The notes beneath the pieces were generated by a model. That model made no database searches. It was not told the origin of the DNA and saw only the letters and a list, made by a program, of their open reading frames with translations. This document shows, one piece after another, positions 4,231 through 61,597 of a stretch of DNA of 64,000 bases. Source of the DNA: Nitrosopumilus sp. GTDB lineage: Archaea > Thermoproteota > Nitrososphaeria > Nitrososphaerales > Nitrosopumilaceae. The stretch lies in the NCBI GenBank assembly GCA_965197525.1, contig OZ240211.1, positions 1,536,001-1,600,000 on the forward strand, in the 5' to 3' direction. Made by a program: the position numbers and the translations under genes. Position 1 is the first letter of the stretch. Every line of letters starts with the position of its first letter.

Positions 4231-5201
4231 CTTTGCAGGAAAAATTCAAAGGAGTTTACGTTGATGATTCTAAAATCAATATTCTAAATAAAGTTGATTC
4301 CATAATCTTTGATTGCGATGGGGTTTTAATTGATGTTACTAAATCATACGATCAAACAATTGCTAAAACAGTCCAATACATATTGAAAAATTTTGCAAAC
4401 ATTAATGATGCAATAAATGTAGATTTTAAAATTATTGATGGATTCAAATCCACTGGCGGATTTAACGATGAAGTGGATTTGACTTATGCCGTCATACTGT
4501 CTTTAGTTGCTGCAAAAACATTGCAAAGAGATCAAACAAGTTTTATATTTGATGTTATAGACAATGCGGATTCTAATGGCATTACTACTGTTGAGCGTTA
4601 TATTGAAGATTTAGTTGATATATCTGACATTAAACAAAAACTATCATATCCTGATACACATAAACAAAATCCGTTATCATCTATATTTGATCAGCTCTTT
4701 TACGGTCCTGAATTATATCAGGAATTATTTAAAAAACCATCTAATTTTTCAGAGCTGGGATTAATTACACAAGATAATGTTATTTTAAACGATTCACTTG
4801 TTGCACAATTACGAAAAAAATTTAAATCAAAAATTGCCATGGTCACCGGTAGGGGCAACATGTCTGCAAGCTATTCGTTAAAGACATTATTTTCAGAGTT
4901 TGATCTTGACCATTCAGTGTTTCTTGAGGATGAGCCAAGAGCGATGGCAAAACCCAACCCTCAAGCATTATTGAACTGTATCCGAGGATTAAATAGTACT
5001 CTTGCCCTTTATCTTGGAGATTCAATGGAAGATTTCATTATGGCAAAAAAGGTAACAACACTAGGCTGTAATACTGTATTTTGTGGAATTATCGGCACAA
5101 GTCAGGATCCACAGGCAAAACTAGAGCTATTTGAGCAAAATGATGCTATTTTAGCATTGGATTCGATTCATTTACTACCAAAGGTATTAAATTTAGAGTG
5201 A
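4227..5201 (+). CDS. HAD-superfamily hydrolase, candidate histidinol-phosphate phosphatase
   Basis: HAD motif I FDCDGVLID, motif II VTGR, AKPNP, GDSMED. Lies between hisC and hisB and overlaps the hisC stop. Confidence 0.8.
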   Translation: MTLQEKFKGVYVDDSKINILNKVDSIIFDCDGVLIDVTKSYDQTIAKTVQYILKNFANINDAINVDFKIIDGFKSTGGFNDEVDLTYAVILSLVAAKTLQRDQTSFIFDVIDNADSNGITTVERYIEDLVDISDIKQKLSYPDTHKQNPLSSIFDQLFYGPELYQELFKKPSNFSELGLITQDNVILNDSLVAQLRKKFKSKIAMVTGRGNMSASYSLKTLFSEFDLDHSVFLEDEPRAMAKPNPQALLNCIRGLNSTLALYLGDSMEDFIMAKKVTTLGCNTVFCGIIGTSQDPQAKLELFEQNDAILALDSIHLLPKVLNLE

Positions 5202-5233
5202 TGATGATACAGATTAGATAATCTGTGAGAAAT

Positions 5234-5824
5234 ATGGCACTGGCAAGAAAGGCATCATCTAAACGAGACACAAAAGAGACTAGCATCAAAGTGTCTGTAA
5301 ATTTAGATGGTACAGGGCAGGTAAAAGTCAAGACCGGGATAGACTTTCTTGATCACTTGATTACGTCTTTTGGAAAACACGCCATGTTGGATCTTGTAGT
5401 CGATGCCAAGTCAAATGACCGTATTGCACACCATTTGATAGAAGATACTGCAATTACACTTGGCCAAACAATTGACAAGGCATTAAGCTCTAGAAAAAAC
5501 ATTACAAGATTTAGCTATGCCTCTGTCCCAATGGATGAATCGCTTGCAGAAGCTTCAGTTGATCTGGTAAGACGTCCATTCTGGAAACTGACTCTATTAA
5601 TTAAACAAAATAAAATTGAGGATGTCGCACAAGAAGATCTTGAACACTTTTTCCAATCACTACTCCAAAATCTTAACAGCTGTATTCATCTTACTGTAAA
5701 GTATGGAGATAATGATCATCACAAAGTGGAAGCTGCAATAAAATCACTAGCAGTTGCATTTAGATACGCATCAACAAAAGATAAAAAACAGAAAGGTGTT
5801 CCAAGTACAAAAGGTTCTATGTAA
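5234..5824 (+). CDS. hisB: Imidazoleglycerol-phosphate dehydratase (monofunctional)
   Basis: [50 protein letters not shown]. Confidence 0.96.
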
Positions 5825-30667: not shown

Positions 30668-31288
30668 TCAATCAGCAAAAAACTTCTTCAAATCGTTGTT
30701 TTTCTTCACCAGTTCAAGCCAATCTATCACCGCCTCTTCTTTATTTTTGCTGTCTTTACTGTAATCTGAAATTAGAGCAACTACGTCCTTCACTACTACA
30801 TGAATGCTCTTTTTGCTGACGTTTATTTGAAATGCCTTTTCTTGGAATTTGATTTTGGCATCATTGGCAATTATACCTAATATTTCACTTGCCACATTAT
30901 CTCTTGTCTTTACATCTGAATATCCTCTCTCTTTGTATACTGATAACAGCTCATAGGGGTCTCTTCTTAAAATGATCATTATTTTGATATTTTCTTTATG
31001 GCATACATAAGGTGCTAGATGACCTACAATCATGTTTTTTCTGCACAAATATTCTTCTCTGACTAGCTCTCTTAATTTTTCAGTATCTACATCGTTTGTC
31101 TCTGCATTCTCTTCGAGCAGATCTGCATTCATGGCTATCTCGTTGATATCTAATATTGGCAATCCTAGTTCTTGAGCAACTCCTTTGGCAATGGTATGTT
31201 TTCCAACGCCCGGATTTCCCGTAATTACTATTGAGGTTCTGTGTAATCTTCGGGTGTTTTTTATGTTATTCATACCAAAACTAAACAT
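30668..31288 (-). CDS. AK6/Fap7-type nucleotide kinase with an element-derived N-terminal extension
   Basis: ITGNPGVGKHT P-loop, VGHLA (hhhGH) motif, ERGYS. The codons upstream of SIVITG lie inside the TIR element. Confidence 0.85.
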   Translation of the reverse strand: MFSFGMNNIKNTRRLHRTSIVITGNPGVGKHTIAKGVAQELGLPILDINEIAMNADLLEENAETNDVDTEKLRELVREEYLCRKNMIVGHLAPYVCHKENIKIMIILRRDPYELLSVYKERGYSDVKTRDNVASEILGIIANDAKIKFQEKAFQINVSKKSIHVVVKDVVALISDYSKDSKNKEEAVIDWLELVKKNNDLKKFFAD

Positions 31289-32566
31289 TGTTTCAACAAC
31301 GTCCTTGATGATTACTTGACTTTGACATATCGACTATTCGGATTACCGGTGTACAGGGTTCCGACATCGTTGACTCAAAAGTATCAAACTTCGCTTCATT
31401 TATGCCATCTCTACTATCCCTAAACCTAGGGGACAGTTTGCGTGATATATTCATGGCAGCGATAATATCCCTATCCATGTATAATCCGCAATTATTACAC
31501 AACATTTTACGACTGTGTTGCATGTCCTCTTGGAGTTTCTTTCCGCATCTTGGACATTGCGTGCTTGTGCGTTTTGGGTCTACAAATTCAACTGGAGGTA
31601 GCCCGACCCACCGGGCTTTGTATTCTATCTGTCTTTGCAGTTCAAAGAATTGCCATCCGTTCAATCTACGTCTGTATTTGTTACCTTGACTGTTCCCCTT
31701 CCTGTATAGTTTTCTAATTCCTTTCAGGTTTTCTAGAACAATAACTGCTTTTTCTTTGACCGCATTATCCACAATATCTTTGGATATTTTGTGGATGTAT
31801 TGTTTTGTTCTGTTGGTCATTCTTTTCTGTCTCTCTTTCCAAAACTGATCTTTCTTTCTGCGATCATTTCTGCAGAATCCGGATCTAGCATGTATTGTGT
31901 TCTCTTTGATTGAGAGCAGTTTGTTTGTCTTGTAGAATGTTACCTTTTCCTCATTTCCACAGGTGACGTTTCTAAGGTTCCTGTCTACTCCCATTGTCTT
32001 GGTACACTCTATTTGTTCTGTTTCTTTGGAAACCCAGAGACTGATGTTGAGGGCAGTCCATGAAAATGAGCGTACTGTCAAGGCAGGATCAGACAGGATT
32101 TTTTGTGTGTGTTGGTTTAACATGATGTTGATAGAATTTCTACTCTTGTATGGAATTGTCAACAGTACACCATTGTGTTTTACTCCATAACAGTTTGTGA
32201 TAAATGGTTTTTTTACCGTTGGATACTTCACTTTGATGCCACGTTTCACGGATTGTTTTCTGTTAGCTAGTATACCTGCAGCCCTTGATATTGCATTGAG
32301 TTTGCATGATGATAAAATATCATAGTTTCTCAACTCGTGATAACACAGCATAGACAATCGCTTCATGTTATGGGTATCTTCTTTTAACCCCATCTTGATA
32401 CAGCAGTTAACCATCTCTGTGAATGTGACCATCATACCCATGAGGTCTGAATTCGGTGTATATTTTTGTGCTATTGACTTTATCGCCCTCAAAGGCTATA
32501 TTACGATTCAAGGATATTTAAGTGTAGATATACTGAGTTATTAGCACCCGAAGATTACACAGAACC
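31235..32566 (-). mobile_element. 1332-bp non-autonomous element with perfect 22-bp TIRs carrying a solo tnpB
   Basis: GGTTCTGTGTAATCTTCGGGTG (31235-31256) and its exact reverse complement (32545-32566). No tnpA; no target duplication visible. Confidence 0.85.
31293..32492 (-). CDS. tnpB: TnpB RNA-guided endonuclease (IS200/IS605 type)
   Basis: RuvC-I GVDRNLRN, RuvC-II LENLKGIR, Zn ribbon CPRCG...CNNCG, RuvC-III DRDIIAAMNI; all three catalytic acidic residues present. Confidence 0.92.
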   Translation of the reverse strand: MRAIKSIAQKYTPNSDLMGMMVTFTEMVNCCIKMGLKEDTHNMKRLSMLCYHELRNYDILSSCKLNAISRAAGILANRKQSVKRGIKVKYPTVKKPFITNCYGVKHNGVLLTIPYKSRNSINIMLNQHTQKILSDPALTVRSFSWTALNISLWVSKETEQIECTKTMGVDRNLRNVTCGNEEKVTFYKTNKLLSIKENTIHARSGFCRNDRRKKDQFWKERQKRMTNRTKQYIHKISKDIVDNAVKEKAVIVLENLKGIRKLYRKGNSQGNKYRRRLNGWQFFELQRQIEYKARWVGLPPVEFVDPKRTSTQCPRCGKKLQEDMQHSRKMLCNNCGLYMDRDIIAAMNISRKLSPRFRDSRDGINEAKFDTFESTMSEPCTPVIRIVDMSKSSNHQGRC

Positions 32567-32609
32567 AACTTTTGTAATACTAATAAGTAGATTTAGACAT
32601 TACAGAGTA

Positions 32610-60214: not shown

Positions 60215-61597
60215 ATGGACTCTAGAAATAAGAAAGCAACGTTGATTTTCTCAGAACATAATCCAATAAAAAAGATAACAAAGAATCACTACACTGTAGA
60301 ATCGCAAACCTCAGATAATACATACAATGTTAGAAAAATGCCAAAATCTGATGTATGGACTTGTGAATGTAGTGATTTTCACTTTAGACTGAGAAAATCA
60401 GATGACAAACACTGCAAACACATCAAATCTTGTATTTTAGTGGTAAATTCTATAAGAATACATCGCAGAATAGAAAAAACTGACATGCCAAAGGTTTGCT
60501 CAGCGTGCTATTCTAATGAAATTATTAAATCTGGATTTAGAACACTAAAGAATGGAACAAAGAGACAGCGTTATGAATGCAAAAAATGTAACAATAGGTT
60601 TATTCTAGGTGAGAATGGATTTTCAAAGGTAGAAACAAATCCCAAAATAATCTCAGAATCCATCAATTTAGTCATGTCAGGAATGTCATATAGAAGTGTT
60701 GCAAGACATATTGAGACATCACGTCAAATCAAGATTAGTCATACGTCTGTAAATAGTTGGATAAAAAAATATACCATTCTAATCAAGGAATATGTAGATA
60801 CTCTTGTTCCTAATGTATCTGATGTATGGTCCTTGGATGAAATGTACCTAAAGGTTAAAAACACAAAAAAGACAGGCAAGGGATTCCATGATTGGTTATG
60901 GAATATAGTTGACCCCAAGACTAGATTTTTGATAGCTACAGAAGTATCAAAGAGAAGGGAAACTAGTGATGCAAGAAAAATTATCGCTAGTGGAAAGCGT
61001 ATTGTTTCACAGAATAATAGACCAAATTACGTTCTAACTGACTCTCTACACGCTTATGAAAAGGCGATAAGAAAAGAGTTGGCAAATCGTACTGCTCACG
61101 TCAAAACCAAGTCTCTCAAAGATGGTTTTGTTAACAGGCCTGTTGAGAGATACCATAACACATTTCGTGAAAATTTAAAGTCAAGACGCGGACTAGGAAA
61201 TGATGAATCTGCACAGAGATTTTCTGATTTACATAGAATACATTATAATTTTACAAAACCACATCAAGGATTAGACGGTAAGACTCCAGCTCAAGAAGCT
61301 GGAATTGATCTTAAATTAGGTCATGACAAGTATAGGGATTTAATCAAGTTAGCAGGAACTAAACCAAACTTTGTAAATAATTTGGGAAAGAGAATCGATA
61401 AACTATCAATAATTCATGAAGGCGACTGTATCAAAATTTCAACTAAAGAGTGGATTGACAAAAAAATCTGGAGAGAAATTAATGATATTCTAAGCCTTCA
61501 CAAATTTAGCTGGTTATCTAATGGTAAGGACAGTTGTTGGATTAGAATTAACTCTTTGCCAATAATACAAAAAGATAAAGACGATAACCAAGACTGA
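60215..61597 (+). CDS. IS6-like (IS240-type) DDE transposase with N-terminal SWIM and Zn-ribbon domains
   Basis: SWIM WTCECSDF...HCKHI; CSAC...QRYECKKC; HTH MSYRSVA...ISHTSVNSWI; D WSLDEM, D LTDSLHAY, E VERYHNTF; YNFTKPHQGLDGKTPA. Confidence 0.88.
   Translation: MDSRNKKATLIFSEHNPIKKITKNHYTVESQTSDNTYNVRKMPKSDVWTCECSDFHFRLRKSDDKHCKHIKSCILVVNSIRIHRRIEKTDMPKVCSACYSNEIIKSGFRTLKNGTKRQRYECKKCNNRFILGENGFSKVETNPKIISESINLVMSGMSYRSVARHIETSRQIKISHTSVNSWIKKYTILIKEYVDTLVPNVSDVWSLDEMYLKVKNTKKTGKGFHDWLWNIVDPKTRFLIATEVSKRRETSDARKIIASGKRIVSQNNRPNYVLTDSLHAYEKAIRKELANRTAHVKTKSLKDGFVNRPVERYHNTFRENLKSRRGLGNDESAQRFSDLHRIHYNFTKPHQGLDGKTPAQEAGIDLKLGHDKYRDLIKLAGTKPNFVNNLGKRIDKLSIIHEGDCIKISTKEWIDKKIWREINDILSLHKFSWLSNGKDSCWIRINSLPIIQKDKDDNQD

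Follow-up and report, generated by a model that had tools for sequence, protein, structure and literature searches.

A 64,000-bp stretch of a Nitrosopumilus sp. genome (assembly GCA_965197525.1, contig OZ240211.1, positions 1,536,001 to 1,600,000), hereafter the window, contains at 31235-32566 a tnpB gene enclosed by perfect terminal inverted repeats (TIRs). This unit probably belongs to a family of non-autonomous transposons with IS6-like ends that carry tnpB together with an omega-RNA gene, with the guide taken from the right flank and with the trinucleotide W-T-R (W, A or T; R, purine) serving as the target-adjacent motif (TAM). The genome to which the window belongs (G000) is a single contig of 2.21 Mb with 39.6% G+C and a completeness of 99%, in which the window corresponds to C1:1536001-1600000. 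Positions without a genome label are those of the window, and left and right refer to the 5' and 3' sides of tnpB, respectively.

The unit is 1332 bp long and non-autonomous, with tnpB and a putative overlapping omega-RNA gene as its only cargo. The sequence GGTTCTGTGTAATCTTCGGGTG was found at 31235-31256 (+) and its exact reverse complement at 32545-32566, forming a perfect inverted repeat of 22 bp. In the direction of tnpB, which is encoded on the minus strand, the copy at 32545-32566 is the left-end TIR and reads as GGTTCTGTGTAATCTTCGGGTG, while the copy at 31235-31256 is the right-end TIR. No further match to GGTTCTGTGTAATCTTCGGGTG with up to three mismatches was present elsewhere in the window, and none was obtained in 100 shuffles. 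The tnpB open reading frame (ORF) occupies 31293-32492 on the minus strand and encodes 399 aa. Its stop codon lies at 31293-31295 and is followed by a gap of 36 nt to the right TIR (31257-31292), so that 58 nt separate the stop from the element end. The gaps between the TIRs and the ORF are 30 nt and 36 nt, and the distance from the outer end of the left TIR to the tnpB start is 52 nt. No tnpA was found within the element.

The encoded protein scored 120 bits against the NCBIfam model NF040570 guided_TnpB (cut-off 100) and 69.5 bits against Pfam Cas12f1-like_TNB (cut-off 26.3; E 2.8e-19), and its nearest solved relatives are TnpB and Cas12f. Both the RuvC triad (D170/E254/D342) and the CxxC...CxxC zinc ribbon are intact. 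When the protein was aligned with 10 diverse relatives, D170, E254, D342, C313, C316, and C332 were invariant and C335 was nearly so. Moreover, the triad and the four zinc-ribbon cysteines were intact in 33/33 TIR-flanked genomic copies, and a ratio of nonsynonymous to synonymous divergence (dN/dS) of 0.10-0.14 between subfamilies indicated that TnpB is under purifying selection. The first-pass annotation, which was made from the window alone, had described a solo tnpB that is catalytically intact by sequence, lies between perfect 22-bp TIRs, and ends 36 nt from the nearer one; the present analysis agreed with it in all of these respects.

The window copy is one of many. A tblastn search of G000 recovered approximately 35 full-length tnpB copies and 12 fragments. 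TIRs of 22-26 bp were found in 33 of the 35 full-length copies, all of them starting with GGTTCTGT when one mismatch was allowed, and 21 full-length copies were flanked by perfect 8-bp direct repeats, that is, target-site duplications (TSDs). The copies fall into several subfamilies that share 79-85% amino-acid identity with one another, and the elements range from 1280 to 1442 bp. The window copy belongs to subfamily A, in which two sister copies are 96-97% identical to it and have the same TIR, with TCCAAAAA and AAGGGCTG as their TSDs. The least diverged copies in the genome differ by 0.5-1%. The search for further TIR-tnpB-TIR units proposed in the first-pass annotation was thus productive. 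The annotation had also proposed, as one of two possibilities, that TnpB was captured by a miniature inverted-repeat transposable element (MITE) of the DDE, IS6-type class. A TIR-bounded, IS6-like, non-autonomous element is indeed what was found, but with approximately 35 copies it is not a one-off capture.

All 12 tnpB fragments in G000 are 3' fragments, and five of them lie inside TIR-bounded, MITE-like elements that retain only the last 100-330 nt together with the left end. These short relatives are deletion derivatives that keep the tnpB 3' end, and the empty MITE precursor for which a check had been suggested was not found among them. The 12 fragment sites include G000:C1:143852-144348, 803351-803738, 870887-871264, 1385894-1386101, and 2108878-2109235; several of the 3'-fragment elements are TIR-bounded, are 208-497 bp long, have 8-bp TSDs, and keep the guide-RNA scaffold and not the nuclease. 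Two other elements of the genome were observed alongside these. At G000:C1:1394563-1396016, approximately 1.2 kb of unrelated DNA lies between subfamily-E ends of 83 nt (left) and 169 nt (right), with an 8-bp TSD, and includes a 133-aa ORF in which a transposase-like zinc-ribbon N-terminus, resembling IS1595-type N-termini, is fused to a TnpB C-terminal tail. The element at G000:C1:883991-884841 is 851 bp long, has perfect 32-bp TIRs of the GGTTCTGT type and an 8-bp TSD, and contains only a 96-aa ORF; neither tnpB similarity nor scaffold motifs were found in it.

The arrangement also extends beyond this genome, as the TIR-tnpB unit was found at more than 100 loci across genomes, with TnpB identity as low as 31-40%. 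In a second Nitrosopumilus genome (G061), 13 full-length copies have ends and duplications of this kind. TnpBs with 62-65% identity in two congeners lie between GGTTCTGT-type TIRs, as do those with 31-40% identity in other families of the order, and several elements across the relatives have 8-bp duplications. The same architecture was found in genomes G021, G004, G040, and G054. In metagenomes, soil among them, 30 of 80 loci with TnpBs of 40-62% identity had a TIR pair of the GGTTCTGT type under strict criteria. The family of the candidate transposase described below was detected in 109 of the 401 genomes of the order, a far wider distribution than that of the nuclease, for which two TnpB queries gave matches in 8 of 61 and 21 of 401 genomes.

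Two arrangements of paired copies were seen in these other genomes. In G061, two inverted copies on C1 at approximately 1325380 and 1451430 have reciprocal 8-mers at their flanks, TAGAAACT|TTATGTTA in one and TTATGTTA|TAGAAACT in the other, which is the signature of an inversion of approximately 126 kb between the copies or of an IS6-type intramolecular inversion. In G054 (L030, 2695-2704), exactly 8 bp (TAAAAGCG) lie between the right end of one TIR element and the left end of a second, which suggests an insertion directly abutting an earlier one.

The complete G000 genome was searched in six frames for enzymes that could move them. Neither a Y1 HUH transposase (PF01797) nor a serine recombinase of the IS607 type (PF00239) gave a match, while the controls matched. 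An IS6-like DDE element was found at 746475-748444 of G000. It is 1970 bp long, has an 8-bp TSD and a 29-bp TIR, and matches the window TIR in its first 18 nt and at 18 of 22 positions overall. Its ORF (G000:746963-748096) specifies a protein of 378 aa in which a SWIM-type zinc finger is combined with a DDE_Tnp_IS240 domain, and which scored 42 bits on the Pfam model of that name (cut-off 27). Two further copies of this transposase element are present in G000, one intact (89% identity) and one frameshifted, and four more distant IS6-like ORFs (28-43% identity) had no detectable TIRs. Among the loci examined, the transposase and tnpB never occurred inside one TIR pair. The ends were named IS6-like because short perfect inverted repeats and 8-bp target repeats are hallmarks of the IS6 family (PMC7986276), and the assignment of the element is supported by the 8-bp TSDs of the sister copies, the resident DDE element sharing 18 nt of the TIR, and the lack of HUH and serine transposases. 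The resident IS6-like transposase is therefore the candidate enzyme for mobilizing the tnpB elements in trans. Membership in IS200/IS605 (IS1341 group) was considered and ruled out by the 22-26-bp TIRs, the 8-bp TSDs in 21 full-length copies, and the lack of a Y1 TnpA. Within the window itself, a 460-aa ORF at 60215-61597 (+) scored 57 bits on DDE_Tnp_IS240 and is 28% identical to the IS6-like transposase. No TIR of the GGTTCTGT or any other type was found within 1.2 kb of it, and the ORF may represent a copy that has degenerated or been domesticated.

The 3' end of the element is predicted to form the scaffold of the omega-RNA, at 31235-31435 on the minus strand, on the basis of covariation, the single-sequence fold, reduced synonymous divergence, and retention in the MITE-like derivatives. 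In an alignment of the last 175-300 nt of diverse elements, two conserved blocks, GGTAATCC (31340-31347 in the window) and AGTCGAT, and three helices were recognized. Helix 1 (31417-31432) forms a hairpin whose loop, AGGTT, is conserved. In helix 2, 31402-31407 pairs over a long range with 31323-31328 (6 bp), and the two strands read TGGCAT/ATGTCA, CGGGGC/GCCCCG, GCTTCC/GGAAGC, and GCCTGC/GCAGGC in different elements. RNAalifold recovered both helices, with compensatory changes at 11/11 pairs. In an anchored count, canonical pairs made up 88% of helix 2, compared with 59% when partners were shuffled (maximum 75% in 2000 shuffles), and the observed figure was lowered by a few mis-anchored rows. 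Helix 3 is the terminal hairpin (31310-31315 with 31243-31248). The inner portion of the right TIR supplies its 3' strand, and where the TIR varies, the 5' strand varies correspondingly, so that the pairing is kept through differing TIR sequences; the right TIR thus belongs to the predicted scaffold as well as being a transposase end. The helix leaves (C)AGAACC unpaired at the element boundary, and in the window the last 8 nt of the scaffold, ACAGAACC, are single-stranded. No such terminal hairpin was present at the left end or at either end of the transposase element. The window copy folds alone into the same helices, and synonymous divergence among the subfamilies drops 2.5-3.3-fold in the last 30% of the tnpB ORF. 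An Rfam search of the element with E up to 5 gave no match. As judged from covariation, a structured RNA spans the last ~200 nt, with its final hairpin using the inner right TIR.

By analogy with canonical TnpB, the guide would begin in the flank past the right end. The first-pass annotation had considered that the guide could come from element-internal or TIR sequence. This is not supported: the inner TIR pairs within the scaffold and the TAM-like motif lies directly 5' of the duplication, and both features point to a guide drawn from the flank outside the right end.

This motif was recognized when the unoccupied sites of the 21 perfect-TSD copies were reconstructed and compared on the tnpB-5' side. 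At position -3, T was found in 15 copies and A in 6; at position -2, T was found in 21/21; and at position -1, G was found in 12 and A in 9. No conservation was seen at other flank positions in these copies. W-T-R, whose background frequency is 0.088, therefore stands directly 5' of the TSD in 21/21 perfect-TSD copies, and in 29/29 when copies with one-mismatch or re-registered TSDs and MITE-like derivatives are added, compared with 2/22 on the right-end side. In G061, T-R occupied positions -2 and -1 in 12/12 delimited copies, and the full W-T-R was present in 10. In the metagenomes, W-T-R was found in 9/9 distinct elements with a duplication. Where the duplication is missing, the right flank is nearly always the altered one and the left flank keeps W-T-R and its 8 nt, as seen in 7/9 of the G000 copies truly without a duplication and in 15/19 such elements from metagenomes. 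The four transposase-bearing elements with TSDs showed the motif on 0/8 sides; for most transposase loci in related genomes, no element boundaries were recognized. Because the motif sits where, and on the strand where, a 5' TAM would be needed if the guide starts with the duplication, W-T-R is taken with moderate confidence to be the TAM.

The window copy itself is inserted at the start of a gene for a P-loop kinase (putative kinase PRK03839-like, AAA_18) at 30668-31288 on the minus strand. In the orientation of tnpB, its left flank reads TTA-CAAAAGTT and its right flank TCAATAGT, without a duplication. The TAM-like TTA (32575-32577, minus strand) lies directly 5' of the 8-nt left flank CAAAAGTT (32567-32574), and no reciprocal partner of these mismatched flanks was found in the G000 genome. 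Among other Nitrosopumilus genomes, three empty sites orthologous to this one have the sequence ...TTATTAGTATTACAGAAATCGTT, then approximately 31 nt ending in ATG, and then TCAATAGTAAT..., and the kinase orthologues, which are approximately 185 aa long, have their ATG directly before TCAATAGT. G000 keeps the left part through CAAAAGTT and resumes at kinase codon 2 directly past the right TIR. The duplication is thus missing because approximately 39 bp were deleted flush with the right end. From this comparison, the loss appears to have followed the insertion and to have comprised the second CAAAAGTT and the approximately 31 nt holding the promoter-proximal region and ATG of the kinase gene. 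End-flush adjacent deletions are a product of IS6-type intramolecular transposition (PMC7986276), and by analogy the window deletion may have arisen in this way.

Consequently, the kinase ORF now starts inside the element, with an ATG at 31286-31288 that is 4 nt past the tnpB stop, and continues in frame across the right TIR. The kinase gains an N-terminal extension of 18 residues, or 12 counted from the second Met, and is presumably expressed from the element. As the right flank of the window copy is kinase coding sequence, the predicted guide segment TCAATAGTAATTACGGGAAA (31215-31234, minus strand), placed by its position directly 3' of the scaffold, corresponds to kinase codons 2-8. In the wild-type allele, this sequence is preceded by ATG, which fits W-T-R, although this is one case and may be chance.

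In the interpretation that we favor, the IS6-like transposase would mobilize the tnpB element in trans, and transcription would continue past the right TIR, giving a guide made of the 8-bp duplication and the following bases. In the empty site, the guide sequence would be preceded by W-T-R acting as the TAM, and since guide and TAM would be adjacent in the unoccupied site, TnpB could cut empty or precisely excised sites, by which the copy would be kept or restored. For the window copy, insertion would have taken place at TTA-CAAAAGTT, followed by the loss of approximately 39 bp flush with the right end and by the takeover of the kinase start. A bolder form of this proposal, which we consider possible but somewhat short of likely, is that a replicative IS6-like DDE transposon uses TnpB with its guide RNA as a module for retention or homing. 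The duplication would then be the first, TAM-proximal 8 nt of the guide, and only insertions beside T-T-purine in the right orientation would persist; in its stronger version, TnpB would steer DDE insertion. Hints that may point to replicative transposition are the TSD-less copies, the end-flush deletion in the window, and the reciprocal-flank inversion pair of G061.

Several points weigh against this interpretation. IS6-type transposition is replicative, so that it is not evident what such an element would gain from a nuclease for homing or retention, and a similar point has been made in PMC13565253. The candidate transposase had transpos_IS6 as its best NCBIfam match at a score of 102.8, below the equivalog cut-off of 125, and its length of 378 aa, extra SWIM/zinc N-terminus, and 1970-bp element are atypical for IS6. 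Its close TIR match concerns subfamily A only, as the other subfamilies share mainly the outer 9 nt. The single-sequence fold of the window copy has a z-score of only -1.75. In a more distant TnpB clade, the motif is mostly T-T-R but looser (6/9), and the transposase-only control set is small (n=4). The youngest copies are already 0.5-1% apart, so that targeting at the time of insertion is inseparable from a later retention filter. Finally, the 3' end of the omega-RNA is deduced from sequence, as are the guide and the TAM.

The one-sided motif could also be explained without the nuclease, if the IS6-like transposase, when acting on these ends, had a target preference that is asymmetric. The same TTR motif accompanies TnpBs that are 40-100% identical and does not covary with the nuclease, and as transposase target and TAM coincide in IS605, a transposase preference could come first. 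A distant TnpB clade, examined for a deviating motif, was again mostly T-T-R (6/9) and does not tell a TAM from a transposase preference. Nevertheless, this explanation is unlikely. The motif keeps strictly to one side of tnpB (left, 29/29; right, 2/22), while DDE transpososomes are usually symmetric; the four transposase-bearing elements have the same terminal GGTTCTGT and 8-bp TSDs and lack the motif on 8/8 sides; and a guide that begins with the TSD would need its 5' TAM at exactly the position of the motif. Another explanation gives TnpB a part in choosing the insertion site, in that TAM-bound TnpB would recruit the DDE transposase and the left end would be joined beside the TAM. The presence of the motif in every TSD-bearing copy, the least diverged included, and its fixed orientation relative to tnpB would fit such a role. 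Insertion at distance 0 from the TAM, however, has no known precedent, MITE-like derivatives without tnpB carry the same motif (though they could be served in trans), and no copy is young enough to exclude a post-insertion filter, which leaves site choice by TnpB less probable still.

The remaining explanation builds on an alternative of the first-pass annotation: a canonical tnpB unit of the IS1341 type would by chance have entered an IS6-type MITE, and the composite would then have been amplified. MITE-sized TIR elements do exist in G000, for example those of 208 bp and 851 bp, but the short family-like elements are deletion derivatives that keep the tnpB 3' end and not empty precursors. Moreover, ORF-TIR gaps of only 30 and 36 nt leave no room for IS605 ends, and the canonical IS605 ends that had been envisaged inside the TIRs are not present. 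The right TIR covaries within the RNA scaffold, the genome has no HUH transposase, and the architecture also accompanies TnpBs as little as 31-40% identical in further families of the order, and is found in soil metagenomes. As more than 100 loci across genomes hold the unit, a chance nested insertion is ruled out, and the composite scenario as a whole is very improbable. The family of non-autonomous elements with IS6-like ends, a guide in the right flank, and W-T-R as its TAM thus remains our preferred reading.

The accepted role of TnpB is the restoration of a transposon after scarless excision, which has been worked out for IS605 and IS607, and associations of TnpB with prokaryotic DDE transposons are rare. 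Six DDE-associated TnpB branches (DDE-1 to DDE-6) with inverted terminal repeats are described in the main text of Altae-Tran et al. 2023 (PMC10691335), where the sharing of ends between solo TnpBs and transposase-bearing elements was taken to suggest mobilization in trans. The present family resembles those systems, as far as that text describes them, in that TnpB is TIR-bounded, its 3' end lies within 250 bp of the element end (58 nt here), and the ends are shared with a DDE transposon. Judged by the main text only, it is set apart from them in that the partner family named there is IS630, with IS6 and Nitrososphaeria unmentioned, and in that a one-sided TAM-like motif beside a variable 8-bp TSD is undescribed there. 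A 2026 review lists ISL2, IS630, and IS1031 as DDE partner families and considers that DDE transposons should profit little (PMC13565253). In the parts of the literature covered, nothing relevant was found on TnpB with the IS6 family or with Nitrosopumilus, Thaumarchaeota, or Nitrososphaeria.

Fanzor elements offer a further comparison. In these, both the TIRs and the short TSDs are incorporated into the scaffold of the guide RNA (Yoon et al. 2023; PMC10711439). As in Fanzor1 and Fanzor2*, the nuclease here is the cargo of TIR-TSD transposons, which in that case are of the cut-and-paste type and often non-autonomous, the TIR is part of the predicted scaffold, and the RNA would extend past the transposon end. 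Unlike here, the Fanzor hosts are eukaryotes and viruses, and the TSDs are short, fixed, and absorbed into the scaffold, whereas the variable 8-bp TSD of the present family would supply the first guide nucleotides. With the IS1341 group of IS200/IS605, the family shares tnpB with an overlapping omega-RNA and, as predicted, a right-flank guide and a T-rich left-flank motif. It differs in its TIRs, 8-bp TSDs, and lack of an HUH enzyme, since IS200/IS605 elements are without TIRs and TSDs and have subterminal hairpins and an HUH TnpA (PMC13565253).

As in IS6/IS26, the inverted repeats are short and near-perfect, the direct repeats are 8 bp, and the transposase is of the DDE_Tnp_IS240 type (PMC7986276); the TSD-less copies, end-flush deletions, and inversions also fit IS6-type intramolecular events described in the same source. 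The IS6 review of Varani et al. 2021 (PMC7986276) gives typical member sizes of 700-890 bp, one passenger-carrying member, two MITEs, and archaeal members that are euryarchaeal or crenarchaeal and none that are thaumarchaeal. Unlike typical IS6 members, the autonomous element here is 1970 bp long and its 378-aa SWIM-containing transposase falls below the NCBIfam IS6 cut-off. What appears to be new, as far as the sequences indicate, is the IS6-like partner, the strict trans arrangement, the TIR doubling as a scaffold strand, and the one-sided TAM-like motif at a variable 8-bp duplication.

Here, a DDE-type and probably replicative family keeps TnpB under strong purifying selection, has its inverted repeat incorporated into the predicted guide-RNA fold, and shows at its insertion sites a TAM-like mark of fixed orientation that transposase-only relatives lack. 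What TnpB does for a DDE transposon thereby becomes directly testable. The test set is defined by the nuclease, the scaffold, a candidate TAM (T-T-R), and a candidate transposase. The family also provides compact archaeal nucleases of approximately 395 aa with a short candidate TAM, and the window copy provides a case in which a host kinase gene now depends on the element for its start codon.

Ends of this family were also seen in another setting in G000. At C1:917372-923722 (L023 and L238), two left TIRs of the subfamily-A type face outward around a 1.3-kb segment, and the right-hand TIR adjoins a 475-aa fusion of an N6/N4 DNA methylase and HNH together with a SWIM/IS240 transposase (37% identity). 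This may be an IS6-like transposon with a methylase cargo. An array of 21-nt tandem repeats, approximately 400 bp long, lies nearby (L023, positions ~5020-5450).

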